Shown here piece by piece: positions 1 to 19,555 of a stretch of DNA of 64,000 nt. This DNA is from an uncultured Gammaproteobacteria bacterium. GTDB lineage: Bacteria > Patescibacteriota > Microgenomatia > Levybacterales > UBA12049. Within the stretch, counting starts at the first letter, position 1; every line of letters starts with the position of its first letter. Location: positions 17,991 to 81,990 of the forward strand of contig CAYWEJ010000001.1 of the NCBI GenBank assembly GCA_964457465.1, given 5' to 3'. Made by a program: the position numbers and the translations under genes. Below the pieces are notes generated by a model. That model ran no database searches, had not been told where the DNA came from, and saw nothing but the letters and a program-made list of their open reading frames with translations.

Positions 1-501
1 CATTTTGCCCAAGTTTATTTTTACCATTATCCGTTAGTTGGAAATATATTATCGTTTCCAAATAGAGCTGCAGCATCATATATTAAAAGAACTATCCATC
101 ACAAAAAAGTTGTTGCTCATGTCAGTAATCCACAGTTATGGGTAAGGGACTACTTTTTTTATACAAACACAATGAATAATTCTAACATACAGGAGATAAA
201 GCAAAAACTGAGAAATAAAGATTACAGTTTTAACAATCTTCAGTTCGTACAATGCACAGGCATTGTAGATGAAAAGAATGCTGTTGTGATTTATGAGGCA
301 TCCTGTACTCATAAATCACAACAAACTGCTCTTGAAATAGCACAATTGCGGGATAGTGCATCCGCATTTGAAATCTATAACGATTACTTATGTAAGCCAT
401 TTGGTCATAAAAGTTTTGTGTCATCAGTCCCACTCAAGAATTTGCATGTTGAGACAATTGAAGATAAGGAATTTTGTGAAACCTTTGTTATACAGTTGTA
501 A
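1..501 (+). CDS. hypothetical protein, probably 5'-truncated by the window edge (an internal ATG at 172 is an alternative start)
   Basis: Frame 1 has no stop codon from position 1 to the TAA at 499-501. The ORF track starts it at ATG 172. No recognisable domain. Convergent with the minus-strand gene that ends at 488. Confidence 0.3.
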   Translation, partial: HFAQVYFYHYPLVGNILSFPNRAAASYIKRTIHHKKVVAHVSNPQLWVRDYFFYTNTMNNSNIQEIKQKLRNKDYSFNNLQFVQCTGIVDEKNAVVIYEASCTHKSQQTALEIAQLRDSASAFEIYNDYLCKPFGHKSFVSSVPLKNLHVETIEDKEFCETFVIQL

Positions 502-2095
502 CTTTTTTCTTAAAGAAAAAAAGTATTGTCATAAAAAGTGATGCAACTGATATAAAATTAGAAATCATTCTAATTTTAGTCTCTTTAAATGCAATTTTTA
601 CTGCATGATTCCCTTCATTTATGCTGAAAGTAATTAATCCTTGATGATGCGGATCTTGAAATTGTATTGGTGTATTTTCGTTGTCAACATAAGCAGTCCA
701 ACCTGGGAAATAAAGAGTATTGTCTAATACTGTTATTTTTGTTGATGATTTCACATCAAAAGTATGAACGGTCGATAATCGTTGATAATTACTTACTTCC
801 CCTTCCCCTTCGATTATTTCAATTGGAGATTTGAATTTCTTTTCTGGGTCACCTGGTGACCAAATAGGAGTTGCTTCAGCACGAAATGTACTACTTCCTT
901 TATATGATTGGTAATACGTGTCGCTGTGTGTCGAACTTGGGAGCACTTTTATAAAAGGGAGGGCATATGCTGCTGAAAAAAGAGTAATAACAAAGAAAAA
1001 TTTCACTGACATTTTTTTATATAAGTGTACAAACAACATACAAGAAGCAATTGTCGGATAAAACATAAATCTCCATGGAAATTGAAATTTTTTGATAAAA
1101 TCACTTTTTTCCCAGATAAAATTTGATGCTTGCACGCTGAGAAATATCCCTCCTATAAAAATAAGGATCCAGAACAGAATTTGCACGTTCTTTTTAATAC
1201 CTTTTTTTATCAAGATAAAAGTACTTACTATCATGAGGAGCACTGCAGGAATTCCGATTTGGGCTGAGAGCCCTCCTATTTTGTTGATATCGTCGTCAAA
1301 TCCCCATGGAGAATAAATAAGGTGTAACAATGGAGCAAAGTGATCTTTGTACATATCTTTGTAAAAAATAAGAAAACTTGTGTATTTTGACTCAAGTAAG
1401 GAGGGTATCCAGAAGTAGGATGAAATACCAAGGCCTAAGATAATTACCGGGATCCATGAGGATAATGGATACTTCTTAAGTAGACAGTAGACTATAAAAA
1501 CAGGAGTGATCATAAGGCTTATTCCATTATGCGAGAGTAAGATTAGGCCAAAAGTAAGTGATCCTAGTATCGGCCTTTGCTTTTTAGCGTCAACTGAATA
1601 GAGCAATAGAGGGATAAGACTGAAAGCTAAAATTTCACCAATTGACCCTCTGACAAAAGTAGTTAAAAAACGGTACGGAAGTACAGTAGAAAAAATTGTT
1701 GCTAAGAACGCAAAATTTTTATCTGTAACTTCTTTTGCCCAAATAAACCAAAATAGTGGGCCAATTATAAAGGATAAACTGAGAAAAAAAATATATGCCT
1801 GCTCCAAACTTAGTCCAAGCATATGAAGTATTGCTGTGGCATAGCCTGCAAGGGGATAAAAAACAAGAAAAATTGGTGAGCCATATCCATAATTTAGTTC
1901 ATCAGCCCATCTTGGCGGGAACTGTCCTGCAAGGAATGCGTGTACGTAAGCATTTTCTCTTATTATATGTACAAATCCATCGTGTGTGATAAAAAAAGGA
2001 TGTATATAAATAGGCAAGAGCATGAGGAGTGAGATGCTAAGAATTATGAGAACGAGCATCTTATCAGAGAGATGAGTAAGCGAGCGCATATACAT
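488..2095 (-). CDS. polytopic membrane protein, YfhO-like (GT-C-type glycosyltransferase candidate)
   Basis: 535 aa with many hydrophobic helices. The C-terminal beta-rich domain '...TVLDNTLYFPGWTAYVDNE...' is followed by a C-terminal TM anchor. The same x-Y-x-P-x-W...V(D/N)G motif recurs in 7623-9842, 36344-39694 and 40050-41951. The family assignment is from memory of YfhO C-termini. Confidence 0.45.
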   Translation of the reverse strand: MYMRSLTHLSDKMLVLIILSISLLMLLPIYIHPFFITHDGFVHIIRENAYVHAFLAGQFPPRWADELNYGYGSPIFLVFYPLAGYATAILHMLGLSLEQAYIFFLSLSFIIGPLFWFIWAKEVTDKNFAFLATIFSTVLPYRFLTTFVRGSIGEILAFSLIPLLLYSVDAKKQRPILGSLTFGLILLSHNGISLMITPVFIVYCLLKKYPLSSWIPVIILGLGISSYFWIPSLLESKYTSFLIFYKDMYKDHFAPLLHLIYSPWGFDDDINKIGGLSAQIGIPAVLLMIVSTFILIKKGIKKNVQILFWILIFIGGIFLSVQASNFIWEKSDFIKKFQFPWRFMFYPTIASCMLFVHLYKKMSVKFFFVITLFSAAYALPFIKVLPSSTHSDTYYQSYKGSSTFRAEATPIWSPGDPEKKFKSPIEIIEGEGEVSNYQRLSTVHTFDVKSSTKITVLDNTLYFPGWTAYVDNENTPIQFQDPHHQGLITFSINEGNHAVKIAFKETKIRMISNFISVASLFMTILFFFKKKVTTV

Positions 2096-2164
2096 AATTT
2101 TATCGATTTTCCCTCTTGGTGTACAGATGACAATCGTGCAAAATAGATAGAGAATGTTTGCATT

Positions 2165-2905
2165 TTGTGTATAATAAATACTGTGAAATTATCAATTATT
2201 ATTCCAGCATATAACGAGGAAAAGACAATCACATCAATTTTGGAAGAGGTGCAAAATGTCAAAATCGACTCAGTAGATAAAGAAATAATTGTAGTCAATG
2301 ATCACTCAACCGACAGTACATCTAAAATTTTGGAAAAAATAGCCAAAACTAATTCTGCAATTAAAGTTTTTAGCCACGAAATTAATAAAGGAAAGGGTGC
2401 AGCAGTAAGAACCGGTTTTGAAAAAGCAACTGGTGACTATGTGGTCATCCAAGATGCAGATATGGAGTATAGTCCAAGCTATCTTGTTAGTTTATTAAAA
2501 CCAATCGTTTCTGGAGAAGCTCAGGTAGTTTTTGGAACAAGGCTTAGGGAAATCCCTGACTTAGAAGGGCATGGAACAATGTCAAAGACCCGTTTCCTTT
2601 TACACTTTTTTGGAAATAGATTTTTAAGTCTGATTACAAGCATTCTTTACTTCCAATGGATAACAGATATGGAGACATGCTACAAGATCTTCCCACGTAT
2701 TTTTTTAGAAAAAGCAAATTTGTCAGGTGAAGGTTTTAATTTTGAGCCAGAAATTACAGCAAAACTTATTAAGGCAGGCTATAAGATAGTTGAATTACCA
2801 ATTAAGACAAAGCCACGAGGTTATAACGAAGGAAAAAAACTACAAACATTTCCAGAGGGTTTTATCGCTCTGTGGACTCTTTTTAAGTACCGGTTCGTAA
2901 ATTAG
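2165..2905 (+). CDS. GT2 polyprenol-phosphate sugar synthase, Dpm1/GtrB-like (soluble form); true start probably GTG 2183 (MKLSIIIPAYNEE...)
   Basis: Contains IIIPAYNEE, 'VVNDHSTDST', 'IQDADMEY' (DXD) and 'DMETCYKIFPR' (D-x-x-C-G/Y-x-K motif of the Dpm1/GtrB/ArnC family). Its stop is one nucleotide before the start of an ArnT/PMT-like gene. Confidence 0.7.
   Translation: MCIINTVKLSIIIPAYNEEKTITSILEEVQNVKIDSVDKEIIVVNDHSTDSTSKILEKIAKTNSAIKVFSHEINKGKGAAVRTGFEKATGDYVVIQDADMEYSPSYLVSLLKPIVSGEAQVVFGTRLREIPDLEGHGTMSKTRFLLHFFGNRFLSLITSILYFQWITDMETCYKIFPRIFLEKANLSGEGFNFEPEITAKLIKAGYKIVELPIKTKPRGYNEGKKLQTFPEGFIALWTLFKYRFVN
2167..2175 (+). promoter_or_regulatory. extended -10 element (TGtgTATAAT) about 7 nt upstream of the in-frame GTG at 2183; putative leaderless promoter
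   Basis: Read directly: tgtgtataat. It lies inside the N-terminal extension that the ORF track assigns from TTG 2165. Confidence 0.35.
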
Positions 2906-2906
2906 T

Positions 2907-4586
2907 ATGTCAAAAGTGCTCGATTTTATTACAGAATGGTCGATTGGTATCTTAATAGCATTATTTCTATTAGCATCTTTTCTAAGATTGAATAGCCTTG
3001 ACCAAATCCCTGTTGGGCTCCACGCTGATGAAGCATACTTTGGATATAATGCTTACTCGATTGCTCAGACGCTAAGAGATGCTACTGGTAATTTTTTACC
3101 CATACATCTCCAGTCATTTTTATATAGCCCAGCAGGCTATTCATACATTGTTATTCCGAGTATGTATATTTTTGATCTCACGCCATTTGCAGTAAGATTG
3201 CCAGGGGTAATTTTTGGAATAGCAACGGTGGTTTTTTCATACTTTTTTGTCATGAAGCTATGCAAAAGCTTAAAATATAGCAAGCTTTTAGGACTCGCAG
3301 TCTGTGCGCTCCTTGCTATCTCTCCTTGGCATATCAATCTATCCCGAGCGTCAGCAGAGAATGTTGTCGTAGTTTTTCTTATAATGTGCGGTGTTTATTT
3401 TTACATTAAATGGGTCGACAAGCAGAAGAATTTGTTCATCATTCTTTCATTGGTTTTTTTCATAACGACATACTTTTTTTATCAAGCTCCTAGGGCTTTT
3501 CTTCCTCTTTTCTTACCAATTCTCTTTTTACTTTATAGACCAAGAGTCTCATTGAGAAAAGTTCTCATTATGGTAGGGCTATATGTATTTTGCATAGCTC
3601 TTCCTGTGTTTTTGATAATTTCATCTGACACTCTTTCGTATAGATTAAAAATGCTTTCTGTATTTAATTCCCCTAGAACAAATGCATTACTTTTTGAATC
3701 AATCACAGAGGACGGACATAGGCAGAGTCCAGTCCTGGAAGTCAGACTATTTCATAACAAAGTTGCAGGATATGCATCAGAGATATTTAGTGGCTATATG
3801 AAATATTTTTCGTATGACTTTTTATTTACAGACCAAAACTTTCCAGACAGGTATCGAGTTCCAAACATGGGCTTGCTTTACATTTTTGAATTACCATTTC
3901 TTATTGCTGGAATATACTTTATTTTTAGATATCGTGAGAAATTTGGGTATCTTTCTTTAGCTTGGGTTGCAATAGGCTTTATTGGTGCGTCTTTGACCTA
4001 CGATGATATCCCAAACCTTCAGAGAACCATTATTGTTTTTCCAGCACTGCATATTATTATTGGCTATGGAGTAATTAATGTATTCAGGTTTACCCCCAGG
4101 AAATATTTGCCTGCTTTTGGGATCATTTTTTCTTTAGTCGTACTATATTTCTTTAGCTATTATCTTCATCAATATTATGTTCATCAATTTGTTCGTAAGC
4201 CAATTTATCGTCAGCAGGGTTACAAAGAGCTTGTAGAGTCTTTGCAAATTGAGATTCCAAACTACAAGAGTTTTAATATTACTTCAAATGAATCGTCTCC
4301 ACTTATTATGTTTCTTTTTTACCTAAAATATGATCCGAAAGTATTTCAAAAATTTATTACAACTCAAAAACATAATTATCTTACAGAAGACTTTGGAAAA
4401 ATTAGTTTTGATCGATATAATTTTGTTCCCGAGGAATGCCCAAGTCATAAAAATACTGATCCGCTCATACTTTCTGTAGATTTAGGAAGATGCGGGGTGT
4501 CTGATAAAAAAAACATTGTCAAAGAAATCACCAGAAGCGATGGAAGTGTTGTTTTTAGGATTGTCAAGACAAATCGTAAGGAATAA
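2907..4586 (+). CDS. ArnT/PMT-like GT-C glycosyltransferase (GT39/GT83-like), paralog 1
   Basis: 559 aa. N-terminal TM followed by a loop with 'GLHADEAYFGYNAYSI' (acidic DE motif), then 'AISPWHINLSRASAENV', many TMs, and a C-terminal soluble domain 'LFYLKYDPKVFQKF'. Three paralogs at 10758-15715 share all of these. Confidence 0.65.
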   Translation: MSKVLDFITEWSIGILIALFLLASFLRLNSLDQIPVGLHADEAYFGYNAYSIAQTLRDATGNFLPIHLQSFLYSPAGYSYIVIPSMYIFDLTPFAVRLPGVIFGIATVVFSYFFVMKLCKSLKYSKLLGLAVCALLAISPWHINLSRASAENVVVVFLIMCGVYFYIKWVDKQKNLFIILSLVFFITTYFFYQAPRAFLPLFLPILFLLYRPRVSLRKVLIMVGLYVFCIALPVFLIISSDTLSYRLKMLSVFNSPRTNALLFESITEDGHRQSPVLEVRLFHNKVAGYASEIFSGYMKYFSYDFLFTDQNFPDRYRVPNMGLLYIFELPFLIAGIYFIFRYREKFGYLSLAWVAIGFIGASLTYDDIPNLQRTIIVFPALHIIIGYGVINVFRFTPRKYLPAFGIIFSLVVLYFFSYYLHQYYVHQFVRKPIYRQQGYKELVESLQIEIPNYKSFNITSNESSPLIMFLFYLKYDPKVFQKFITTQKHNYLTEDFGKISFDRYNFVPEECPSHKNTDPLILSVDLGRCGVSDKKNIVKEITRSDGSVVFRIVKTNRKE

Positions 4587-4590
4587 AAAC

Positions 4591-5505
4591 ATGAAAAAAG
4601 TTGTTATTTCAATATTAGATTATAACGGGCAAGACAAGACAAATGCATGTTTAAAATCTCTTGAAGGACTTAGTCTTCCAGATATATCGCTTCGAGTTCT
4701 TGTTATTGATAACTATCCTGAGGGAAAATTTGTTTTGACTGCGAAATTACCTAAGCTTACAGTTGATATTATTAAGACTAAAGAAAATAAGGGTTTTGCG
4801 GGAGGACATAATGTTGGCTTTGATTTTGCAATGAAAAATGGAGCAGACTACGTTATTATTCTGAACAATGATACCTTTGTTGATAAAAACCTTGTTAAAG
4901 AGTTAGTAAGCTCAGCAGAAGAAGATAATAATAGAGGTGCAATTGTCCCAAAAATCTATTTTGCAAAAGGCCATGAATATCACAAAGATGCATACAAAAC
5001 AAATGAACTAGGAAAAGTATTTTGGTATGCTGGAGGAAATATCGATTGGGATAACATTAATGGTGTTCATCGTGGTGTTGATCAAGTTGATAGAGGCCAA
5101 TACAACACTGAAGAAGAGACCGAGCTCCTTACTGGATGCTGTGTGCTTTTTACCGCTGAGGTATTACGAAAAACGAAAGGATTTGATGAAAGATATTTTC
5201 TGTATTACGAAGATGCTGATCTAAATGAGCGACTCAAGGCTCTTGGCTATATCGTTTGGTATAACCCTAAGGCAGTCTTGTGGCACATTAATGCAGGTTC
5301 AACGGGAGGGTCTGGTTCAAAACTTCAAGACTATTTTATAAGCAGAAATCGTATGCTTTTTGGATCTAAATTTGCGAGAACAAGAACAAAAATTGCGCTT
5401 CTGCGAGAGAGTATGAGAATACTTGCATCTGGACGAGAATGGCAAAAAAAAGGTGTGATAGATTTTTATAAAAGAAAATTTGGTAAAGGAAGTTTCGCTT
5501 TATGA
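4591..5505 (+). CDS. GT2 family glycosyltransferase
   Basis: In-frame ATG 5 nt after the upstream stop. Contains 'VVISILDYNGQDKT', 'IDNYPEG', 'YYEDADL' (DXD) and a long C-terminal region typical of GT2 rhamnosyl-/galactosyl-transferase-like proteins. Confidence 0.7.
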   Translation: MKKVVISILDYNGQDKTNACLKSLEGLSLPDISLRVLVIDNYPEGKFVLTAKLPKLTVDIIKTKENKGFAGGHNVGFDFAMKNGADYVIILNNDTFVDKNLVKELVSSAEEDNNRGAIVPKIYFAKGHEYHKDAYKTNELGKVFWYAGGNIDWDNINGVHRGVDQVDRGQYNTEEETELLTGCCVLFTAEVLRKTKGFDERYFLYYEDADLNERLKALGYIVWYNPKAVLWHINAGSTGGSGSKLQDYFISRNRMLFGSKFARTRTKIALLRESMRILASGREWQKKGVIDFYKRKFGKGSFAL

Positions 5506-6251
5506 ATGATAAGATTACAGCCGTAATAATTGCAAAAAATGAAGAGGAGATGATAGGAGATTGCCTGAGATCTCTCTCATTTTGTGATGCTCTCATCGTT
5601 GTTGATAATTCGTCTAGTGATAATACAGTGGGAATTGCAAAAAAGGTGGGTGCGAAAATAATTACTGTTAAATCAGATAATCTTTCAGAATTGAGAAGCG
5701 CACCTTTAAAAAAAATATCAACAGAGTATGTGCTCTATATAGATGCAGATGAACGAGTAACAAAAGAGCTTGCAGATGAGATACTCGGAACTATCTCATC
5801 AGGAACAGATGTTGTAGCATTTTACCTTTTTCGTCAAAATTATTATTTTGGCAACCATCCATGGCCTAAAAAAGAGCGACTTGAGCGATTGTTTAAGACA
5901 GAAGCATTAAAAGGTTGGAGAGGGATTCTTCACGAATCACCTATTTTTTTGGGAGAAACAGGTGAATTTAGAAATCCATTACTTCACTATACTCATAGGA
6001 ATTTTTCCTCAATGGTGACAAAGACAAATGACTGGTCAGTAAAGGAAGCTGAGTTAAGATTTCAAGCTCATCATCCACCTATGAGTTGGTGGAGATTTCC
6101 ACGTGTGATGATAGGCGCATTTTTCCAATCGTATATCGGAAGCCAAGGCTACAAAGCGGGAATGGTCGGATTATTAGAAAGTATATATCAGGCTTTTAGT
6201 ATGTTTGTTACATACGCTAAATTATGGGAGCTGCAACAGAGAGAAAAGTAG
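5502..6251 (+). CDS. GT2 family glycosyltransferase (short WaaE/KdtX-like type)
   Basis: 'ITAVIIAKNEEEMIGDCL', 'IVVDNSSSDNTVGIAKKVGAKII' and 'YIDADERV'. ATGA overlap with the upstream gene. A paralog lies at 19556-20323. Confidence 0.7.
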   Translation: MNDKITAVIIAKNEEEMIGDCLRSLSFCDALIVVDNSSSDNTVGIAKKVGAKIITVKSDNLSELRSAPLKKISTEYVLYIDADERVTKELADEILGTISSGTDVVAFYLFRQNYYFGNHPWPKKERLERLFKTEALKGWRGILHESPIFLGETGEFRNPLLHYTHRNFSSMVTKTNDWSVKEAELRFQAHHPPMSWWRFPRVMIGAFFQSYIGSQGYKAGMVGLLESIYQAFSMFVTYAKLWELQQREK

Positions 6252-6252
6252 C

Positions 6253-6492
6253 TTATTTAGAAGACTTTTTTAGTAGTTTTTTCCAGGATTTTATCTCTTC
6301 AATTGTTAACCTCTTTTTTGCAAATTTAAAAAGATAGATAATTTCAATAATTCCGATTGTGTTTATCACAAGAACTGCAACAAACCATATTTTTTGGTCA
6401 TTTTTACTTGCTCTCCATAGTGCAATCCCCTTCCAAACAAGTGACCAAAGTCCAATTATATAAAACCAGAACGGATAATTTACTGACGGCAT
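6253..6492 (-). CDS. small two-TM membrane protein of unknown function
   Basis: 79 aa: two hydrophobic helices with W/K-rich flanks and a Lys-rich tail. It is the only minus-strand ORF inside a + strand operon and fills a 295-bp gap. Confidence 0.3.
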   Translation of the reverse strand: MPSVNYPFWFYIIGLWSLVWKGIALWRASKNDQKIWFVAVLVINTIGIIEIIYLFKFAKKRLTIEEIKSWKKLLKKSSK

Positions 6493-6546
6493 ACAGCTAT
6501 CCTATCATAGGTACTCAAGAAATGCAAAACTTGTTACAATAGAAAT

Positions 6547-7626
6547 ATGAAGATAGCAATTTTCGATCCATATCTGAATACAATGTCGGGAGGAGAGAAG
6601 TATATGTTGTCTCTTGCGTTTTGTTTAAAGGAGGCACATGACGTCTCAATCATGTGGGATAAGTCACCAAAAGATGAGATAGTATCTCTTGCACGAAAAA
6701 GATTCTCATATAATCTTGAAGAATTTACATTTGTGTCTTCGATTTTCACCTCACAATTATCTATGCTTGATAGATATAGAAAAAGTAAGGAATATGATGT
6801 CGTTATCTATCTAAGTGATGGGAGTATCCCAGTTTTAGCATGTAGTCTTATTATTCATTTTCAGTCCCCTATGCTTTGGGTGCGAGGTAGGAGTATAAAA
6901 AATAGACTCAAACTAAAAAAAGCAAAAGATATAATATGCAATTCTAGATTCACCAAAAAATACATTGATAAATCATTTGGAGTTAATAGCACTGTTTTGT
7001 ATCCGCCGGTATTGCTTCAAGGATCAGTGAGTAATAAAAAAGAGAATCTCATTCTAAATGTAGGTAGATTCGGAATTAACCATGCTGGGTCAAGCTACAA
7101 GAAACAAGACGTTTTAGCTCAGGCTTTTGAAAAAATGGCAAAAGAGAATAACACGAAAGATTGGAGATTAGTTTTTATTATGAGCACTTTGGAGCAGGAT
7201 AGAGATGCTCTTGATGATTTTATTACAAAGTATAAAAAAAATAATATGGATTTTGTCATTAATCCTGATAACGATACATTATGGGAATATTATAGAAAAG
7301 CTAAAATTTATTGGCATGGAGCTGGATATGGCGAAGATGTCGACTTACATCCTGATCGAGCAGAACATTTCGGCATTTCAACAGTTGAAGCTATGGGAAT
7401 GGGGGCAGTGCCTGTTGTGTTTAGCGCTGGAGGTCAAAAAGAAATAGTTGATCATCAGGTAAATGGTATACTGTGGAGTACGCTAGATGAGTTAGAGCGA
7501 TACACTCTTGATCTTATGGAGAGTCAAGAACTCTTGGACAAGTTGTCAAAAAAGTCGATTATAGATGCTCAAAAGTATTCACTTGACTCATTCTGTCAGC
7601 ATATTAATGAAATAATCAGACAATGA
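6547..7626 (+). CDS. GT4 family glycosyltransferase
   Basis: N-terminal 'MKIAIFDPY...SGGEKYM' and C-terminal 'FGISTVEAMGMGAVPVVFSAGGQKEIV' (GT4 E-x7-E region). Confidence 0.7.
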   Translation: MKIAIFDPYLNTMSGGEKYMLSLAFCLKEAHDVSIMWDKSPKDEIVSLARKRFSYNLEEFTFVSSIFTSQLSMLDRYRKSKEYDVVIYLSDGSIPVLACSLIIHFQSPMLWVRGRSIKNRLKLKKAKDIICNSRFTKKYIDKSFGVNSTVLYPPVLLQGSVSNKKENLILNVGRFGINHAGSSYKKQDVLAQAFEKMAKENNTKDWRLVFIMSTLEQDRDALDDFITKYKKNNMDFVINPDNDTLWEYYRKAKIYWHGAGYGEDVDLHPDRAEHFGISTVEAMGMGAVPVVFSAGGQKEIVDHQVNGILWSTLDELERYTLDLMESQELLDKLSKKSIIDAQKYSLDSFCQHINEIIRQ

Positions 7627-9842
7627 AAAAAGATAAGATTTGGATTGCTCTTTTTTTATTCGCTGTATTAGCTTTTTTTCATCCCTTGCTCTCAAGCAAA
7701 GTCCCGATCCCTACTGATGTATTAGTAAACTTCTTTTATCCATTAAGGGATTCATATACAACTGAATACCCAAGAGGAGTCCCCTATAAGAACCCACTTA
7801 TAAGTGATCCTGTTACTCAACAAATTCCATGGAGAGCCCTCTCTGTAGATCTCATCAAAAGCGGACAGTTGCCTTTATGGAACCCATATCAAATGGCAGG
7901 ATACCCACTATTTCAAAATATTCAAAGTGCATCATTCTATATTTTTAATATTTTCTTCTTTATTTTTCCATTTATTGAGTCGTGGTCTCTATACATAATT
8001 TTAGAAGTTGTGTTAGCAGGAATTTTTATGTATTTATACTTGAGAAATCAGAATCTTTCTGCTGCTGCCGCGTTTTTTGGTGGGATTACTTTTTCATTTT
8101 CAGGTTTTTTTATATCTTGGTTAGAGTGGGGAACAATTGGACACACAGCGCTCTGGGCTCCACTTATGTTGTTAAGCGTTGATCGATTTCTTACATCAAG
8201 AAGGCTCTATTGGCTTGTGATTTTAGTATTTTCTCTTGCTTGCGCATTACTTGCTGGACATTTACAGACGTTCATTTATATTTTCTTGACTCTTTGTGGT
8301 TATATAATATACCAGGCTATTTGTCATAAAAAAATAACTTCAATTTTTCCTGTTTTTCTATCTATCATATTATTTATTTTTATTACAGCAGTTTTATGGA
8401 TTCCACAGCTACAATTTGTTCTTCAATCAGCAAGGAATGTAGATCAGGATTGGCATAGAGCAGGATGGTTTATCCCAATTCAAAATATAGTGCAATTTAT
8501 AGGACCAAATTTTTTTGGTAATCCAGCAACAGGAAATTATTGGGGATTATGGAACTATGGTGAATTTGTTGGTTATGTTGGGATTGCGCCATTGCTTTTT
8601 GCCATCTTGGCCTTGTGGAAAAAAGTAAGCGGTTATCTTTTTTGGTTTGTATTACTTGCCTTTGTTTTTCTATTTGCTTATGACAATCCTATTTCGCATA
8701 TTCCTTTTCAGCTATCTTTACCATTTATTGCCTCAACCCAGCCGACGCGATTAATTTTTTTAGCAGATCTCGCATTAAGTATTTTAGCAGCAAAAGGTTT
8801 AGAAAATTTTATGAGAGAGAAAAAAAACATCCTTCAGCCATTTATTTTGTTCTCAATATTATTTTTAGGAATATTTCTTTATGGTTTTATAGGGGTAAAA
8901 CTGCAAGTAATTTCTGCTGAGAATTTTAGAATCGCGTTTAAAAATCTTATAGTTCCTTTCATCTTATTTTTTGCAATTACAAGCGTATTAATTGTTAAAA
9001 AATGCATCAAAAAAATTCATTCCAATATATTTGTAATTTTTATAATTTTTTTGACAGTATTTGACCTTTTGTATTTTGCTCAAAAATATACAGTATTTTC
9101 GAATAAAGAATATTTTTATCCGAAAACAAAGATAATTAATTATTTAACCTCACAAAAAGATATATTTAGAGTAATGACCACAGATAGAAGCATTCTACAT
9201 CCAAATATATCAACCTTTTATAGAATACAAAGCGTAGATGGCTACGACCCGCTTTATCTGCAGCGATTTGGTGAATTTATGACTGCAGTTGATAGAGATC
9301 TACCTGACATAAGTGGACCTTTTGGCTTTAACAGAATAGTCCACAAAGATTATAAAGAATCTTCATTTTATAATCTCCTTGGTGTGAAGTATATATTGTC
9401 GTTAACAGATATAACGGAAAAGAATCTACGAAAAGTTTATCAAGAAGGTGAGACAAGAGTATATGAGAACGTAAACGTTTTTCCAAGAGTATTTTTTGTA
9501 GGTAGTGTTAAAAAAGCGTCTAGTAAAAATGAAGCAATTACTATGCTCTTTGAGCATAAATCTGATCTTTATAAAACTGCGATAGTGGAGAATACGCATC
9601 TACAAGATACAAATTTTTCAATTGGTGAAGTGACTATTTTAAAGTATTCTGAGAACAAAATAGTCATTAAAACTAAAAACAATGGAGAAGGATTTTTGGT
9701 TCTGACAGATGCATATTATCCTTCGTGGTCAGTTAGTATCGATGGAAAGAAACAGACGATAGTTCTTACAGATTTTACGTTTAGAGGAGTGGTTGTCCCC
9801 AAAGGCGATCATAAGGTAGAATTCAAGAATAATCTTATATGA
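7623..9842 (+). CDS. YfhO-like polytopic membrane protein (GT-C-type candidate)
   Basis: 739 aa with about 13 or more TM helices. C-terminal domain 'FLVLTDAYYPSWSVSIDGKKQTI...FRGVVVPKGDHKVEFKN' carries the shared YfhO-like motif. ATGA overlap upstream. Confidence 0.5.
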   Translation: MKKDKIWIALFLFAVLAFFHPLLSSKVPIPTDVLVNFFYPLRDSYTTEYPRGVPYKNPLISDPVTQQIPWRALSVDLIKSGQLPLWNPYQMAGYPLFQNIQSASFYIFNIFFFIFPFIESWSLYIILEVVLAGIFMYLYLRNQNLSAAAAFFGGITFSFSGFFISWLEWGTIGHTALWAPLMLLSVDRFLTSRRLYWLVILVFSLACALLAGHLQTFIYIFLTLCGYIIYQAICHKKITSIFPVFLSIILFIFITAVLWIPQLQFVLQSARNVDQDWHRAGWFIPIQNIVQFIGPNFFGNPATGNYWGLWNYGEFVGYVGIAPLLFAILALWKKVSGYLFWFVLLAFVFLFAYDNPISHIPFQLSLPFIASTQPTRLIFLADLALSILAAKGLENFMREKKNILQPFILFSILFLGIFLYGFIGVKLQVISAENFRIAFKNLIVPFILFFAITSVLIVKKCIKKIHSNIFVIFIIFLTVFDLLYFAQKYTVFSNKEYFYPKTKIINYLTSQKDIFRVMTTDRSILHPNISTFYRIQSVDGYDPLYLQRFGEFMTAVDRDLPDISGPFGFNRIVHKDYKESSFYNLLGVKYILSLTDITEKNLRKVYQEGETRVYENVNVFPRVFFVGSVKKASSKNEAITMLFEHKSDLYKTAIVENTHLQDTNFSIGEVTILKYSENKIVIKTKNNGEGFLVLTDAYYPSWSVSIDGKKQTIVLTDFTFRGVVVPKGDHKVEFKNNLI

Positions 9843-10786
9843 AAGTAAGTATTGTTGTACCAAATTACAACGGAGAAAGTTTGATCAAAGAAAATCTCCC
9901 TTCAATAGTAAAAGCTCTTGTTTTTGCTCAGAAGAAAAATGAGATTCTTGGTGAATTAGTAATTGTGGATGACGCTTCATCTGATGGGAGTGTAATATTC
10001 CTAAAAGAGTTTCAGCATGAAACAAAGAGCATTGAAGTTATTGTTCACGTGAATGAGAAAAATAAAGGCTTTTCACCAACAGTAAATACTGGGGTTAGAA
10101 AGTCTACTGGTGATTTGGTGGTTTTACTTAATTCAGACGTGATACCAGATGAAGATTTTCTTATCCCTCTAATTGCGCATTTTGAAGATGAGAATGTCTT
10201 CGCAGTTGCTTGTATGGATAAAAGTATAGAAGATGGTAAGACTGTGTTGAGAGGTAGAGGGGTTGGCACGTGGAAAAGAGGTTTTCTTGCACATAAGCTA
10301 GGTGATTTAGATGCTAACAACACACTTTGGGCAAGTGGAGGAAGTAGTATGTTTGATAGGAAAAAATGGGACAAGCTTGGAGGTCTATGTGAGTTATATG
10401 CACCTTACTATTGGGAGGATATTGATCTTTCATATCGTGCATTGAAGGCAGGGTATAAAATACTCTTTGAAAAAAAGAGTACAGTCGTTCATAAACACGA
10501 AGAAGGGTCTATTAAGAAAAGTCAATCGAAAGGGAAGGTGAGCAAGATCGTAAATAGAAATCAACACATATTCACCTTACTCAACGCTACTGACAAAAAT
10601 ATTCTATATAGTTATTTTGTTAATTGTCCAATGCATTTTTTAGCTGCAATTAAGAATAATGATACCTCATATATTTTGGGTACTCTGATGACGATTAAGA
10701 TGATGCCAAAAATCCTTGAGTATAGAAAGAGAGTTCAGAAAATGGCTGTAGTGTCTGATGCTGGTGTTATTTCGCTATTTACTTAG
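9839..10786 (+). CDS. GT2 family glycosyltransferase
   Basis: 'VSIVVPNYNGESLI', 'VIVDDASSDGS' and 'YWEDIDLSYR' (DXD). Confidence 0.7.
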   Translation: MKVSIVVPNYNGESLIKENLPSIVKALVFAQKKNEILGELVIVDDASSDGSVIFLKEFQHETKSIEVIVHVNEKNKGFSPTVNTGVRKSTGDLVVLLNSDVIPDEDFLIPLIAHFEDENVFAVACMDKSIEDGKTVLRGRGVGTWKRGFLAHKLGDLDANNTLWASGGSSMFDRKKWDKLGGLCELYAPYYWEDIDLSYRALKAGYKILFEKKSTVVHKHEEGSIKKSQSKGKVSKIVNRNQHIFTLLNATDKNILYSYFVNCPMHFLAAIKNNDTSYILGTLMTIKMMPKILEYRKRVQKMAVVSDAGVISLFT

Positions 10787-12473
10787 TTCAATTAAAGTGA
10801 GTAAAAAAAGTTTTTCTTCATTTTTAAATACAAACTTTTTTCTGATTCTTGTATTCGCTTTATCTGCTTTTATTCGATTCTATCAAATAAGCCAAGTTCC
10901 AGTTTCACTTTATTGGGATGAGATTGCAGTGGGGTACAATGCATATTCTATTTTACATACAGGTAAAGACGAGTATGGCAACTATCTACCAGTTCTTTTT
11001 GAGTCATACCATGACCAGAAAATGCCATTATTTGTTTATCTATCCTCAGTTAGTATTGCCTTTTTTGGCCTAAATGAGTTTGCTGTTAGATTCCCATCTG
11101 CCATTTTTGGCCTTACTGGAATAGTTTTCTTATTTTTTCTTATTAAAGAATTAACAAATAAAGTTGAAAAAAGCAAATACTATCTTGCACTCTTATCAGC
11201 ATTTATTTTTTGTATTACTCCTTGGCATATCATTTTTTCTAGAACTGGTTTTGAGGCTAATTTTGCTTTAACGTTTTTACTATCAGGTTTATATTTTTTT
11301 GTTAGAGGTCTAAATAGATCTTTGTATTTTTTGCTGTCAGTTATTTGTTATGTTCTGGCATGTTATACCTATAGAAGCTCATTGCTATTTGCATCATGTA
11401 TCCTATTTTTTCTAATAATTTATTTCTATAAAGATTTAAGAAAAATTGATATCAAAAAGATTATTCTTTTGATACTATTCGCTACAATATTATTTTTACC
11501 ACTTGGACTAAATTTCATACAAAAAGGCGATGAGAGGTTTTCGCAAGTAAGTATTTTTTCCAATCAGAATGAATCAATTGCAACTAATGTAAGGAAGATA
11601 CAGGAGAGTGGTAATTCATTTATTGCAAAAGCTCTTTTTAATAGAAGGATGGTATATGTAAATCAGTTTTTAACAGGGTATTTTTCTCATTTCAAACCTG
11701 ATTTTCTTTTCTCTGCAGGGGATGGGAACCCCCGTCATGGGGTAAAAGGAATGGGAGTCCTATATTACTGGCAGTTGCCCTTCATTTTGATAGGTATTTG
11801 GTATTTTTTGAAACATGATAGAAAGCTGAGTATTATTATGTTTGGTTGGCTTGCAATCTCTCCAATTTCGTCAAGTTTTGCTGTTCCCACACCGCATGCG
11901 TTGAGAGCTTTACCAATGGTTATTCCATTTGCAGTTTTTACCGCTGGAGGAATAATTTGTATACTCCAAATCTTAAAAAGTGAGAGAAATAAATATCTAT
12001 TTGGGATAGTTTTATTTTTTGTAATAATTCTTAATTTGTCTTTTTTTGTTAAACATTATTACATTCAAAACACAGAAATTGCGAATAACCAGTGGGGTGA
12101 TGGATACAAGCAGCTTGTAGTTGAGGTTGCAAATTTGAGCGACAAATACGATAAAGTTGTTGTTTCTGGACATTATTGGCAACCATATGCATACTTTCTC
12201 TTTTATTTAAAATATGATCCTGTTCTATATCAAAAAAATGGATCATCAGTGTCATTTGATAAATATATATTTGGTGGAACTGACTGGGACAAAAGTGTTG
12301 GAAGGGCTGAATTGAACGATGTCGATCTTAGAAGTTATGCAAACAACGCTAAAAAAATACTTGTTGCATTATCTCCTGCTGAATACCTCACACAAGTAAG
12401 TCATGTTATACCGATTAAAAATATAAAAAACCATAAAGGCGAAGTTGTTTTTATATTGGCTCAAGTAAATTAA
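10758..12473 (+). CDS. ArnT/PMT-like GT-C glycosyltransferase, paralog 2 (start may instead be the in-frame GTG at 10797)
   Basis: 'VSLYWDEIAVGYNAYSIL', 'CITPWHIIFSRTGFEANF' and a C-terminal 'FLFYLKYDPVLYQ'. The ORF-track start overlaps the upstream gene by 29 nt. Confidence 0.6.
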   Translation: MLVLFRYLLSSIKVSKKSFSSFLNTNFFLILVFALSAFIRFYQISQVPVSLYWDEIAVGYNAYSILHTGKDEYGNYLPVLFESYHDQKMPLFVYLSSVSIAFFGLNEFAVRFPSAIFGLTGIVFLFFLIKELTNKVEKSKYYLALLSAFIFCITPWHIIFSRTGFEANFALTFLLSGLYFFVRGLNRSLYFLLSVICYVLACYTYRSSLLFASCILFFLIIYFYKDLRKIDIKKIILLILFATILFLPLGLNFIQKGDERFSQVSIFSNQNESIATNVRKIQESGNSFIAKALFNRRMVYVNQFLTGYFSHFKPDFLFSAGDGNPRHGVKGMGVLYYWQLPFILIGIWYFLKHDRKLSIIMFGWLAISPISSSFAVPTPHALRALPMVIPFAVFTAGGIICILQILKSERNKYLFGIVLFFVIILNLSFFVKHYYIQNTEIANNQWGDGYKQLVVEVANLSDKYDKVVVSGHYWQPYAYFLFYLKYDPVLYQKNGSSVSFDKYIFGGTDWDKSVGRAELNDVDLRSYANNAKKILVALSPAEYLTQVSHVIPIKNIKNHKGEVVFILAQVN

Positions 12474-12494
12474 TTATTGGTATACTGAAATTGT

Positions 12495-14117
12495 ATGAGA
12501 AAAAATCTTTTGATATTGTTGTTGATTCTCAGTCTTGGAGCTTTCTTAAGATTTTGGAATCTGACAAAAGTCCCCCCAAGCCTTTATTGGGACGAAGTAT
12601 CTCAAGCATATAATGCATATTCAATATTAGAAACAGGGAAAGATGAGCACCAGGAGAGAATGCCGCTTGCCAGATTTCAGGCATTTGGTGATTATAAAGC
12701 ACCAGTAAACATATATCTTACTGTGGTTTCCATAGCATTTTTTGGGAAAAATGATTTCTCAGTAAGATTTCCTTCTGCTTTTTTAGGGACATTATCTATA
12801 GCTTTCGTTTTTTTGTTAGTTAAGTATCTTTTTAGTTCTGTCAAACATAAAGAGATAATTGCACTTGTTGCATCGTTTTTGCTTGCCATATCTCCTTGGC
12901 ATATCCAATTGTCAAGAGCAGCATTTGAAGGAAATGTTGCAACATTTTTTACTATTGCAGCGCTCTCTTTTTTCTTTATAGCTATAAGGAAAAGCATGTG
13001 GTTTATTTTGCCATGTATTTTTTGTTTTGTTATCGCGTTTTATTCTTTTAATGCGCATAGAGTATTTATTCCGCTTTTTGTTATTTTCTTAGGGGTGTTG
13101 TATTGGAAGAATTTACTTGAGAAGAAAAAAATTGTTGTTTTTGGAATTGTTGCTGGTTTTATGCTACTCCTCCCATTTGCAAATTTTTTCCGTTCTCCTG
13201 AAAGTAAGCTCCGATTTAACGAAGTGAATATATTTACTGATATTGGTGTAATTCAACAATCCAACAATCTTAATGCCCACAATAGCTCGCTTATTGGGAA
13301 AATTATTGACAACAGGAGAGTGCTTTATGGACAGTCCTTTCTTAAGCATTATTTTGATTTTTTTGATCCTAGATATCTTTTTATTACTGGTGATATTAAC
13401 CCAAGATTTTCAGATCAATTTAATGGTGAGTTATATTTGTGGGTTTTACCTCTATTTTGTTTCGGAGCATATACACTGTATGTACTTCGAAGTAAAGAAA
13501 CCTTTCTTATTGTCGCATGGTTATTCTTGGCTCCAGTGGCTGCGGCCACAGCAAGAGAGACGCCACATGCACTTAGGAGTGAGACATTTATTCCTGTGTT
13601 TGAAATAGTGGCCTCTGTTGGAGCAGCAACTATTTTTTTGTATTTTAAAAAGAAGAAAAAAATTTATACGGCTTTATTAACAGGAGCTATGTGCGTTGTA
13701 TTATTTTCTCTTTATTCCTTTTTACATAATTATTTTATTCATAATCCGAAAATTAATTCTTATGACTGGCAGTATGGCTACAAGGAAGTAGTTGAATACA
13801 CAGAAAGTATTAAAAACGATTACGATAGAATTTATTTCAGCAATATATATGGTAGACCTTCAATATATATTGCATGGTATGGCAATATAAAACCAGAGGA
13901 ATACTGGAAAGAGGCTCATATGACTAAAGATTTTGTAGGTTTTTTTAATACTTCACAACTTGGAAAGTATTATTTTGTTAATCAACCTCCAAAGGAGATT
14001 TCTTCAAAGACGCTTATCATAATGGAACCTTCAAAAATTCCTGAAAATGTTAAGATTCTTAAAGAAGTTGATTTTTTAAACGGTGAGCCAGCGTTCATTG
14101 TTGCAAAAGGCTTATGA
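12495..14117 (+). CDS. ArnT/PMT-like GT-C glycosyltransferase, paralog 3
   Basis: 'PSLYWDEVSQAYNAYSIL' and 'AISPWHIQLSRAAFEGNV'. Roughly 40-50% identical to the neighbouring paralogs, estimated by eye. Confidence 0.65.
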   Translation: MRKNLLILLLILSLGAFLRFWNLTKVPPSLYWDEVSQAYNAYSILETGKDEHQERMPLARFQAFGDYKAPVNIYLTVVSIAFFGKNDFSVRFPSAFLGTLSIAFVFLLVKYLFSSVKHKEIIALVASFLLAISPWHIQLSRAAFEGNVATFFTIAALSFFFIAIRKSMWFILPCIFCFVIAFYSFNAHRVFIPLFVIFLGVLYWKNLLEKKKIVVFGIVAGFMLLLPFANFFRSPESKLRFNEVNIFTDIGVIQQSNNLNAHNSSLIGKIIDNRRVLYGQSFLKHYFDFFDPRYLFITGDINPRFSDQFNGELYLWVLPLFCFGAYTLYVLRSKETFLIVAWLFLAPVAAATARETPHALRSETFIPVFEIVASVGAATIFLYFKKKKKIYTALLTGAMCVVLFSLYSFLHNYFIHNPKINSYDWQYGYKEVVEYTESIKNDYDRIYFSNIYGRPSIYIAWYGNIKPEEYWKEAHMTKDFVGFFNTSQLGKYYFVNQPPKEISSKTLIIMEPSKIPENVKILKEVDFLNGEPAFIVAKGL

Positions 14118-15715
14118 GAAAAAGCATTTTATTACTTTCTATTATTATACTTCTTGGTTTTTTCTTAAGGTTTTATCATATTGGCTCAGTGCCACCTTCT
14201 CTTAATTGGGATGAGGCATCAATTGGCTACAATGCATTCTCAATTCTAAACACCGGAAAAGATGAGTATGGAAAGCTTTTCCCGCTTACATTCCAATCCT
14301 TCGGTGATTTTAAGCAACCGGTATATATTTACTTAACGACAATTCCAATTTTATTTTTTGGACTAAATGAGATATCTGTAAGAATGCCATCTGCACTTTT
14401 GGGTTCTGTGAGCATCATCTTCGTCTTTCTGCTGGTTAAGGAGCTTTTTTACAACTCTAAAAGCAAACAATATTATGCACTAATTAGTGCTATATTGTAC
14501 GCATTTTCTCCTTGGTCTATACAATTTAGTAGATTTGCCTCGGAAGCAAATGTTGGCATATGTTTTATCATTGCTGGAGTTTTTTTCTTTCTTTATGCAG
14601 TAAGAAGAAACAAGCTTGGATATCTCCTTGTTGCTGACATGCTTTTTGTTTTAAGTATTTATACTTACCATAGCCAAAAGATTTTTACACCATTACTCAT
14701 TGGAGTTCTTTTTCTTAGTCATTATAAATATTTTTTAAAGAGTTGGTCAAAAGCAGTTATATTCATAATCTGCTTTGTTTTTTTGAATTTATTTTGGATT
14801 ATAGACCCATCCGCAACAGCTAGAGGAAAGAGCGTTTTATTTACTTCAGAGCAAACTCAGTTGTTAGAAAGCCCAATTAAGTATGAGTTGGAAGATAGGA
14901 ACAATGAAGATATACTTGGCTCTTTTTTGCATAATCGTCGAATAGTTTACGCAAAAACATTTTTAAATAACTATCTATCACATTTTAGTCCCACCTTCTT
15001 GTTTATAAATGGTGATAATGCAAGACATCATGCTCCATATATGGGTGTTGAGTATTTGGTAAGTTTCCCTTTTCTTATCGTCGGCATACTGTATCTGTGG
15101 AAGAATTATCGTCATCAAGCAAAAATAATTACCATTTGGATATTAATTGCTCCGATCACTTCTTCATTAGCAATTGACTCACCAAACGCTATTAGGAGCA
15201 TGATGTTTTTACCTGTCATTCAAATTTGTGTAGCGCTTGGGATTTGGAATTTCTATAGTGTTAAAAAAGAAAATATGAAAAGAGTCGTTCTAGTAGCTAT
15301 CTCACTTTTGTACATATCAAATGTAATATATTATGCTCATCAGTATTTTGATAATACAAATCTTCTGTATGCCAGATACTGGCAGTTTGGCTATAGAGAT
15401 GGAGTAAAATATGCCAACTCAGTTCAGGATAGTAAGGTGTTTTTTGCTTCTGACGTGGAACAGGCGTATATCTTTTATCTTTTTTATTCAAAGAAAGATC
15501 CAAGTACTTATTTAAGAAATGGGGGTTCAAAAATAACAAAAGGAGATTGTTACCAGATAGAAAATAGTTACTTTGGAGATTGTAGCAAGTATTTTGATAG
15601 CGGATATTTTGTTTCGTCAAAGCCGTTACCTTCTAACTTAGTTATGCAGGGCAGGGATGATATTCTATTTCCCGATAAAACTGTGGCACTTTCTATTTAT
15701 CAATTTAAAAAATAG
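14114..15715 (+). CDS. ArnT/PMT-like GT-C glycosyltransferase, paralog 4
   Basis: 'PSLNWDEASIGYNAFSIL' and 'AFSPWSIQFSRFASEANV'. ATGA overlap with paralog 3. Confidence 0.65.
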   Translation: MRKSILLLSIIILLGFFLRFYHIGSVPPSLNWDEASIGYNAFSILNTGKDEYGKLFPLTFQSFGDFKQPVYIYLTTIPILFFGLNEISVRMPSALLGSVSIIFVFLLVKELFYNSKSKQYYALISAILYAFSPWSIQFSRFASEANVGICFIIAGVFFFLYAVRRNKLGYLLVADMLFVLSIYTYHSQKIFTPLLIGVLFLSHYKYFLKSWSKAVIFIICFVFLNLFWIIDPSATARGKSVLFTSEQTQLLESPIKYELEDRNNEDILGSFLHNRRIVYAKTFLNNYLSHFSPTFLFINGDNARHHAPYMGVEYLVSFPFLIVGILYLWKNYRHQAKIITIWILIAPITSSLAIDSPNAIRSMMFLPVIQICVALGIWNFYSVKKENMKRVVLVAISLLYISNVIYYAHQYFDNTNLLYARYWQFGYRDGVKYANSVQDSKVFFASDVEQAYIFYLFYSKKDPSTYLRNGGSKITKGDCYQIENSYFGDCSKYFDSGYFVSSKPLPSNLVMQGRDDILFPDKTVALSIYQFKK

Positions 15716-15767
15716 AAACCCTGTTGCAAGTTGTAAAATAAGTCATATACAATCGTATGTATTATTG

Positions 15768-17501
15768 ATGAACAAGGCTAAGCGTTTCATTAAGGGAATA
15801 TACAGGTGGTTGGGAAAGAATGATCATGCCATTCTCTCTCTCTTTTTCGTTATAGTGCTAGCTATCCTCCTGGTAAATGCTTTTCATGAGGAGTATCCAG
15901 ATGAATTCGATAATATTTTAGGTGGTTGGTATATTATTCATGGTATTCCGATCTACAAAGGTTTTTTTACCCATCATGGACCTGTAGCATATATAATTTC
16001 TGCAATTATCGAATTATTTACTCGAAATTCTTTTGTAGCATTTCGTGTTTTATTTGCATGTGCAATTTTTGCCCAACTTCTTTGGTCTTATGTATATATA
16101 AGAAAGAAAATTGGTAAAGATAGAAGTTTGTTCTATCTAGCTTTCATTGGGATAATCTCTCTTGCTGGAAATTATTATTGGTTACATATGCTTCTTGCTG
16201 ATACAATTTCTGCATATTTTCTTGCTCCTGTAATAACAATCCTTCTTGTTACAAGCTTTTATAAAATTAGCTTAACTCGAAAAGATTTGATAGTCGTATC
16301 GATTCTAACATCTCTTACTGTATTAAGTTCTTTAACATTTCTTTTCCTATCCCTCATAATTTATTGTTATGCTTTTTACTATTATTTACGATGTAACCAT
16401 ATTCATATCTTTTCAAGAAAGTCATTACAAGCTCTCTTAATTTTTTTAGGTCCATACATTCTATTTTTCATATATTTATTTGCATCATCTAGTATAAAAG
16501 AGTATCTCTATCAGGGTTGGGTATTCAATCAAAAGTATTATATATATAATTACCCACGTCCAGATGGGATAACAAGAATTAATCCTGTTAGATTTGCTAT
16601 CGTAATTGCCAACACATTTTATAATAGCTACTTCACCTTACTTGAGCAAGTTAAAACACTTAATATTGGTTTTCCTTTAAACATCACATTAGCCTCTGGT
16701 ACATTTGGTACTGTGATATATTGTTTTATTAAAAAAAGATACATCTTTGGATTAACTTTTTTTACGTTTTTAGCTTACGCAAATGCAAGAAGTGAACCTC
16801 TTCACTCAAAAGAAACAGACTATCAGTCTGCAGTCTATATTATGATTGCTTTTGTAGTAATACCTTTTATTCTTATAGAAATTTTTCGAAAACTTGATAA
16901 CGATAAGAGATTTGGTGCAAATATTATTTCTATACTTCTTTTTATAGTTATTGGGTTTTATTCTCTGTTCTCCTCGCTTTTTCTTTTCCAAAAGTTTTTT
17001 AATAGAACCTATGAAAAATATATGGGTTATGCTTCATTAATTTATGATAGGCCTGAAATAGCACCAATTATTAACAAGATCGTGGCTGTAAATGAGCCTG
17101 TATGGATTGGACCTTTTGAATTTAAGGAACTTTTCTATACCCATGGCAAACCAGCTTCGAAATATCACATCTTTATTCCAGGAATGGGTTATTCTCCTGA
17201 AATCAGAAGCAAATTTATAGCAGAACTCGAGAAGAACAAGCCTTCAGTTGTTTACTTTCAAAAGACATTTTTTATTTTAGGAAGAAGTCCAGAGATGTAC
17301 GGGCAATTTTTTCTTGACTACTTAGATTCACATTATGTTTTACTTATGGACTATAAGGAAAACGGAATAAGATATAGGTCGCTAGTTCCAAGGTCAGGAA
17401 GGGTTGATCTTGAAGGAAGGCTATATATAAGAAAAGAAAATGTAAAAGAGACTATAAATAAAATGCTTAGTCAAAAATTAATAGTTGCTTCTCCTGAGTA
17501 G
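15768..17501 (+). CDS. polytopic membrane protein (GT-C-like candidate) with a soluble C-terminal domain
   Basis: In-frame ATG after the upstream stop. The first loop has acidic 'EEYPDEFDN', followed by about 12 or more TM helices and a roughly 130-aa hydrophilic C-terminus. Confidence 0.4.
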   Translation: MNKAKRFIKGIYRWLGKNDHAILSLFFVIVLAILLVNAFHEEYPDEFDNILGGWYIIHGIPIYKGFFTHHGPVAYIISAIIELFTRNSFVAFRVLFACAIFAQLLWSYVYIRKKIGKDRSLFYLAFIGIISLAGNYYWLHMLLADTISAYFLAPVITILLVTSFYKISLTRKDLIVVSILTSLTVLSSLTFLFLSLIIYCYAFYYYLRCNHIHIFSRKSLQALLIFLGPYILFFIYLFASSSIKEYLYQGWVFNQKYYIYNYPRPDGITRINPVRFAIVIANTFYNSYFTLLEQVKTLNIGFPLNITLASGTFGTVIYCFIKKRYIFGLTFFTFLAYANARSEPLHSKETDYQSAVYIMIAFVVIPFILIEIFRKLDNDKRFGANIISILLFIVIGFYSLFSSLFLFQKFFNRTYEKYMGYASLIYDRPEIAPIINKIVAVNEPVWIGPFEFKELFYTHGKPASKYHIFIPGMGYSPEIRSKFIAELEKNKPSVVYFQKTFFILGRSPEMYGQFFLDYLDSHYVLLMDYKENGIRYRSLVPRSGRVDLEGRLYIRKENVKETINKMLSQKLIVASPE

Positions 17502-17504
17502 AAT

Positions 17505-19514: not shown

Positions 19515-19555
19515 CTCTCCTAGAAATAATATGTTCAATTCTCTACAATAAAACT

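Follow-up and report, generated by a model that had tools for sequence, protein, structure and literature searches.

Bacterial Pmt and the streptococcal enzymes PgfM1 and PgtC2 carry out protein O-glycosylation from polyprenyl-phosphate donors, and the mycobacterial Emb and Aft enzymes use one common donor. In Gram-positive bacteria, PMT_2-type GT-C enzymes (GacL, CsdD/F, GtlB, GttB, and GtsC) use C55-P-sugars to decorate wall polymers (PMC8035078). Here, we analyzed a window of 64,000 nucleotides (nt) from contig CAYWEJ010000001.1 (positions 17,991 to 81,990; assembly GCA_964457465.1), which is titled "uncultured Gammaproteobacteria bacterium" and is placed by GTDB in the Levybacterales (Patescibacteriota, Microgenomatia), and focused on four genes in its interval 2907-15715, hereafter A, B, C, and D (Table 1). 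Our data show that A-D are anciently duplicated GT-C integral-membrane glycosyltransferases of the PMT_2/COG1807 "ArnT-like" family. They lie in a surface-glycan locus, and we lean toward the view that they decorate or extend the surface or cell-wall glycopolymer of that locus, outside the membrane, from polyprenyl-phosphate sugars.

BLASTP comparisons among B, C, and D gave E values of 4e-92 to 3e-89, and those of A against B, C, and D gave 3e-56 to 2e-47; Smith-Waterman scores among the four lay at z 56-113 versus shuffled sequences. A sequence-only reading of this DNA had estimated the identity of the paralogs at about 40-50%, but the measured values are lower, namely 36-37% within the B-D group and 26-29% between A and the other three. 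Most of the shared motifs described in that reading are indeed present. The N-terminal motif [H/W](A)DE..(G/A)YNA(Y/F)SI directly follows the first transmembrane (TM) segment in each of the four proteins, a second motif, (S/T)PW(H/S)I..SR...E(A/G/N), is also common to them, and each ends in a soluble domain, i.e., a non-membrane region of ~125-140 amino acids (aa). FYLKYDP, which had been assigned to all four, is exact in A and B only; the corresponding residues are FYSKKDP in D and WYGNIKP in C. In A, HADEAYFGYNAYSI is found at residue 39, SPWHINLSR at residue 139, and FYLKYDP at residue 471. The acidic D-E pair of the first loop (D33/E34 in D numbering) occurs in all four paralogs and is invariant across 52 homologs, as are R90, R140 (in the SR that follows SPW), R237, and R361, which are likewise present in A-D. 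Given these invariant residues, all four proteins look catalytically competent at the sequence level. The first loop with its D-E pair would be located outside the membrane. Since the window is AT-rich (GC content, ~33%) and the A-D proteins are very hydrophobic, one might suspect that the motifs are compositional artifacts or that the open reading frames (ORFs) are not real genes. We give this suspicion practically no weight: the BLASTP E values and the shuffle z-scores are far beyond chance and therefore exclude a compositional artifact, and the 1177 scored database homologs of D, the syntenic orthologs, and a high-confidence fold prediction also speak against it.

The link of A-D to a known family was taken from Pfam and from fold comparison, because sequence profiles run against the PDB reached only ArnT. 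More specifically, a four-sequence profile found no match among PDB sequences, and a 52-sequence family profile reached ArnT (5ezm) alone, at an E value of 0.25; the weak HMMER alignment to 5ezm puts K67-x-P69 of the A-D family onto the K-P-P of ArnT. In Pfam, PMT_2 (PF13231; gathering threshold, 26.1 bits) was exceeded by B (38.1 bits), C (39.0 bits), and D (52.8 bits), and A, which is homologous to these three by BLASTP, remained under the threshold with 20.1 bits. PMT (PF02366; threshold, 22.7 bits) was reached by C (30.8 bits) and marginally by A (23.6 bits), and B and D did not reach it. Hidden Markov model similarity to the PMT_2/GT39/GT83 group, the lack of which would have spoken against the assignment, is therefore present, each of A-D exceeding the gathering threshold of PMT_2, of PMT, or of both. 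The structure predicted for D had a pLDDT of 92, and every significant structural match was a GT-C enzyme; the best mutual TM-score in Foldseek was that of ArnT (0.55/0.55 and 0.56/0.56). On the predicted model, the assignment of the family to the GT-C fold, class GT-C_A, is solid, and no single characterized GT-C family is singled out by structure.

The earlier description of the four proteins as ArnT/PMT-like thus stands with respect to the PMT_2 family and the GT-C fold and fails with respect to membership in ArnT proper or Pmt proper. Only C matched the ArnT equivalog (NCBIfam NF009784), with 16.2 bits versus a cut-off of 567. GT39 Pmt proper, as known from eukaryotes and actinobacteria, was rejected because PMT_4TMC (PF16192) and MIR domains, the latter a feature of the eukaryotic members, had no match in A-D at E<=0.01 and the PF02366 scores were marginal. 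An assignment as oligosaccharyltransferase was likewise rejected, with no STT3 or archaeo_STT3 match for A-D and no WWD in the translated sequences. The best NCBIfam name, Agl23 (TIGR03663), was set aside since A-D score 30-42 bits against a cut-off of 126.25.

Family members are found in other Microgenomates as well, and the nearest named relatives are Candidatus Levybacteria. At least 570 loci were confirmed when species-representative genomes were scanned, and the best 80 lineage-named loci belong to Levy-, Gottesman-, Roizman-, Woese-, Curtiss-, and Chisholmbacteria, all Microgenomates. Homologs, where named, are called "glycosyltransferase family 39 protein" or "ArnT-like glycosyltransferase" (NCBI, JGI) and are attributed to Candidatus Levybacteria/Patescibacteria. 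The family is already labeled in databases, and the "family 39" label is a naming convention that does not by itself establish membership. Tandem copies are normal in the Microgenomates lineage: in 77 of 82 loci, two or more family members lie next to each other on one strand, runs of 2, 3, 4, 5, and 6 members were seen, and the most common arrangement in related loci places a C-type gene immediately 5' of a D-type gene. Our literature search, which had limited coverage and is no proof of absence, found no paper on a GT-C expansion in Microgenomates or other bacteria of the candidate phyla radiation. In addition, many loci from metagenome-assembled genomes (MAGs) titled "uncultured Gammaproteobacteria bacterium" (L003, L007, L008, L011, L014, and others) encode proteins 34-50% identical to D and have tandem arrays of the Microgenomates type; it appears that Patescibacteria bins have been given a placeholder title or an incorrect one.

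Our analysis upheld the proposal that the duplications are old. In two comparison genomes, L001 (Levybacteria MAG GCA_016214555.1) and L002 (a Patescibacterium), the gene order matches that of the window (A, GT2, GT2, DUF5652, GT4, YfhO, (GT2), B, C, and D, followed by G, (H), GT2, I, and an epimerase gene). Positional orthologs in these genomes are 45-72% identical to the window genes (A, 53-72%; B, 45-59%; and C, 57-64%), compared to 26-37% between paralogs. In a neighbor-joining tree of 248 family members, built without support values, the clades around the four window paralogs are mutually exclusive, with C-type and D-type sequences in separate clades. The D clade comprises 101 sequences from 80 of the 82 loci, a presence that exists by construction given that the loci were chosen by similarity to D. 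The C clade holds 63 sequences (62 loci), the A clade 67 (42 loci), and the B clade 12 (10 loci). The age and retention of the paralogs argue for non-redundant roles.

The tandem arrangement of three of the genes was also borne out. B, C, and D run head to tail, with the stop codon of B 21 nt 5' of C and a 4-nt overlap (ATGA) between C and D. The true start of B is probably GTG 10797, which yields a protein of 558 aa, as judged from the stop codon of the preceding GT2 gene at 10786 and from the length of the orthologs (557 aa). Judging solely from these tiny gaps and overlaps, the array genes would be co-transcribed. A promoter and terminator scan of window positions 1-20000 gave background levels (98 promoter-like sites versus 85.8±10.5 expected, and 14 terminator-like sites versus 9.6±3.4 expected) and did not give operon boundaries.

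Positions ~488-57874 of the window (~0.5 to 57.9 kb) form one surface-glycan locus of ~57 kb, in a genome whose size, ~1 Mb, is inferred from a related contig of 1,084,101 bp. It contains ~9 GT2, ~8 GT4, and at least eight GT-C-type genes, and it also holds genes for a DegT aminotransferase, epimerases, an NTP_transferase, and acetyl- and methyltransferases. Compared by description with the multi-component transmembrane glycosylation systems of Gram-positive bacteria (GacL, CsdD/CsdF, GtlB, GttB, GtcC, GtsC, and YkcB; PMC8035078), the locus appears to share the combination of PMT_2-type GT-C genes with GT2 genes resembling C55-P-sugar synthases, within wall or surface polysaccharide loci of a single-membrane bacterium, and a YfhO-type GT-C gene is present in both. 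It differs in having more GT-C paralogs per locus (three in tandem here and up to six elsewhere), and no GtrA-family flippase was found among the window ORFs scanned (small ORFs were scanned in part). With PMT_2/COG1807, which largely corresponds to CAZy GT83, A-D share the GT-C fold, the acidic first-loop motif, and the C-terminal extracytoplasmic domain; in contrast, A falls under the family cut-off, the characterized member ArnT is reached only with the poor E value given above, and its acceptor, lipid A, is implausible here. Mycobacterial EmbA/B/C, AftA-D, and PimE, which assemble arabinan and mannan on the outer side of the membrane, belong to other GT-C sequence families and resemble the present system in logic rather than by membership; the large C-terminal domains with which they bind carbohydrates are absent from A-D.

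In the mechanism that we propose, a cytoplasmic-face GT2 (2165-2905 or 41992-42930) would load a nucleotide-sugar monosaccharide onto polyprenyl (undecaprenyl) phosphate, and the lipid-linked sugar would then be flipped across the membrane. At the outer face, a GT-C enzyme would transfer the sugar to the acceptor by means of the invariant Asp-Glu pair with which the helix of the first external loop begins, and the conserved basic residues K67, R90, R140, R237, and R361 (D numbering) would act alongside this pair. The acceptor would be the glycopolymer made by the locus itself, whose genes include those for a Bac_transf phosphoglycosyltransferase, for a Wzx-like flippase and a Wzy_C protein, and for numerous GT2 and GT4 enzymes. 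For A-D, we infer a polyprenyl-phosphate monosaccharide as the donor, as well as the identity of the acceptor, catalytic activity, and a division of labor among the paralogs.

Based on their sequences, the two GT2 enzymes named above are candidate polyprenyl-phosphate sugar synthases. The best PDB match of the 2165-2905 product is the dolichol-phosphate mannose synthase (DPMS) 5mlz (E 1.8e-15), followed by GtrB (5ekp) and ArnC, and in NCBIfam it matches AglJ (119.6 bits) and PpgS (63.8 bits) over the full length, in both cases under the equivalog cut-offs. The 41992-42930 product matches ArnC with 185.3 bits (residues 2-290 of 312) and PgfS with 151.1 bits, again under the equivalog cut-offs. 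As for the flipping step, the size and position of the hydrophobic ORF 39691-40053 would suit a small lipid-sugar flippase. This ORF is flanked by the AftD-like GT-C gene and a polytopic ORF (40050-41951), just 5' of the 41992-42930 GT2 gene.

We rank a glycopolymer acceptor first because the genes reside in a Wzx/Wzy-type polysaccharide locus, because Gram-positive PMT_2-type GT-C enzymes decorate wall polymers (PMC8035078), and because the domains specific to Pmt and to oligosaccharyltransferases (OSTs) are missing from A-D. Several observations weigh against this ranking. The sequence link to ArnT is weak, as noted above, and structure is blind to donor class, given that AglB and STT3, which take oligosaccharide donors, score like ALG12, Pmt4, and ArnT. 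A DPMS-like GT2 gene lies immediately 5' of a family member in just 11 of ~258 cases and immediately 5' of 0 of 18 A-type genes in other loci, the latter being a weak test since these loci are truncated. The lack of a GtrA-type flippase among the ORFs scanned also counts here, as does the small number of residues that distinguish the paralogs (see below). A rather unlikely alternative, albeit one to be taken seriously, is that A-D are protein O-glycosyltransferases of the Pmt, PgfM1, or PgtC2 type, which would use polyprenyl-phosphate donors to modify Ser/Thr residues of pilins or of S-layer, secreted, or membrane-anchored proteins. However, PMT_4TMC and MIR are missing, B and D do not match PF02366 and the other PMT scores are marginal, the structural scores of ALG12, AglB, and ArnT are equal to that of Pmt, and A-D are found among polysaccharide-type genes with no obvious glycoprotein substrate adjoining.

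A strictly ArnT-like function, in which a sugar, possibly cationic, would be added to a glycolipid or lipoteichoic-acid-like anchor and change the surface charge, appears improbable to us. It would fit the best mutual TM-score of ArnT, the failure of the family profile to reach any PDB sequence other than ArnT, the presence of a DegT aminotransferase and an ArnC-like GT2 in the locus, and the JGI label "ArnT-like"; yet the ArnT equivalog score amounts to 16 bits versus 567 and concerns C only, and three to six paralogs per locus are unlike the ArnT pattern. Moreover, lipid A and lipopolysaccharide are commonly considered to be absent from Patescibacteria, which we count against an ArnT-type lipid acceptor. 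Even less credible is an OST- or ligase-like reaction, i.e., the en bloc transfer of an oligosaccharide from a polyprenyl-diphosphate carrier. Although STT3, AglB, and PglB (GT66) are among the top structural matches and a pathway of the Wzx/Wzy type, which produces polyprenyl-PP-linked units, is encoded in the locus, A-D match no STT3/OST family and lack the C-terminal domain with WWDxG, their own soluble domain being much shorter (only ~125 aa), and a separate Wzy_C protein is already encoded at 46257-49334.

If A-D act on the glycopolymer of their own locus, the question arises as to how they share the work. The sequence-only reading had suggested that each adds a distinct sugar. This is unlikely, since two clear (perhaps three) GT2 enzymes resembling polyprenyl-phosphate-sugar synthases are set against at least eight GT-C-type genes; with so few lipid-sugar synthases, differences in acceptor or linkage are more plausible than differences in sugar. 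It is therefore probable, in our view, that the paralogs act at different acceptor positions or form different linkages rather than transferring different sugars. In this respect, they would be similar to the Gram-positive multi-component transmembrane glycosylation systems and to the mycobacterial Emb/Aft enzymes. The acceptor-loop divergence for which that reading had suggested a check did not appear: a comparison of the A, C, and D orthogroups yielded only seven group-specific fixed residues and no distinct diverged loop, and hence no direct sequence signature of differing acceptors. In the same orthogroups, the C-terminal domain is the least conserved region.

Table 1. Features of the surface-glycan locus discussed in the text (window positions)
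Feature	Coordinates	Strand	Length (aa)	Remarks
PTPS_related/YfhO-like GT-C-type gene	488-2095	-		
GT2	2165-2905	+		Ends 1 nt 5' of A; Pfam Glycos_transf_2, 119.6 bits
A	2907-4586	+	559	GT-C membrane glycosyltransferase; most diverged of A-D
GT2	4591-5505			Likely ATG 4591, 5 nt 3' of A stop (mechanical start 4516)
GT2	5502-6251			
ORF	6253-6492	-	79	Between GT2 and GT4
GT4	6547-7626			
YfhO-family GT-C	7623-9842	+		Pfam YfhO, 95.6 bits; other GT-C family than A-D
GT2	9839-10786			
B	10758-12473	+	571 (as called)	First in tandem array
C	12495-14117	+	540	Second in tandem array
D	14114-15715	+	533	Third in tandem array
G	15768-17501	+	577	Polytopic protein directly 3' of D; GT-C fold by model
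H	17505-19514	+	669	~13 predicted TM segments; next in gene string
I	20325-21785	+		Distant fifth PMT_2-like member; PMT_2, 22.5 bits (under cut-off)
Wzx-like flippase (Polysacc_synt)	24110-25372			
J	33408-35624	+		Distant relative of A-D; hhalign 87%, N-terminal ~170 columns only
AftD-like GT-C gene	36344-39694		1116	
Hydrophobic ORF	39691-40053	+	120	3-4 TM segments; no family, no GtrA match
GT2 (ArnC/PgfS/GtrB-like)	41992-42930	+	312	Pfam Glycos_transf_2, 113 bits
Wzy_C protein	46257-49334		1025	Ligase/polymerase-type
O	49324-50757	+		PMT_2-family GT-C, far 3' in locus; PMT_2, 39.1 bits
Bac_transf phosphoglycosyltransferase	55218-55883			

The interval 2907-15715 does not consist of A-D alone but also includes three GT2 genes, one GT4 gene, and one YfhO-family GT-C gene, the last with positional orthologs in L001 (61% identity) and L002 (43%). 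The small ORF between GT2 and GT4 occupies the slot of a 78-79-aa DUF5652 (PF18893) gene in L001 and L002; by this synteny, on which its assignment is based, it is probably a real conserved gene.

Further GT-C and membrane genes surround the array. Gene G, whose start at ATG 15768 matches the NCBI protein (the mechanical ORF start is at 15657), has no Pfam family, and its profile showed no significant similarity to that of the A-D family in hhalign; the matches of this profile to GABA receptors among PDB sequences (E>=0.04) were discarded as chance TM similarity. According to its structural model, G is a GT-C fold without a described sequence family that extends the GT-C array, to which it is linked by fold only. 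Gene H likewise has no Pfam or NCBIfam match and no significant hhalign result against the A-D family; it has an ortholog at the same position in L002 (49% identity) and 21 homologs in related loci, and it could represent a further membrane enzyme of the GT-C or polymerase type. The profile of gene I aligned with the A2 family alignment in hhalign over 400 columns (probability, 98%; E 3e-13). The position of I is conserved in L001 and L002, and its first loop reads FDKDPTRD in place of WDE. For gene O, hhalign to A2 gave 93.5%, and BLASTP gave a weak match to A (31% over 120 aa).

In large part, our findings confirm automatic annotation, and what they add is context. An ultra-small genome devotes ~57 kb to surface-glycan synthesis, including at least eight GT-C-type enzymes, some of them without a described sequence family, and the C-type and D-type lineages have been retained side by side over many candidate classes. 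This points to a complex surface glycan that is assembled outside the membrane and is probably important for an attachment-dependent lifestyle and for phage recognition. Tentatively, and with considerable doubt, we propose that Microgenomates keep a lineage-specific extracytoplasmic glycan assembly line, in which conserved strings of GT-C genes (C- and D-type paralogs, the G family, the 13-TM H, the YfhO-type gene, and the AftD-like gene) would use a few polyprenyl-phosphate sugars to build or elaborate a complex surface polymer outside the membrane. If so, the system would be analogous to mycobacterial arabinan and mannan synthesis, but in episymbiont-type genomes of ~1 Mb; family G, and perhaps H, would represent a previously undescribed GT-C family; and interactions with a host or with phages could depend to a large extent on the surface glycan. 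The C/D pair and gene G thus constitute defined targets for work on the Patescibacteria envelope and for cataloging GT-C families.

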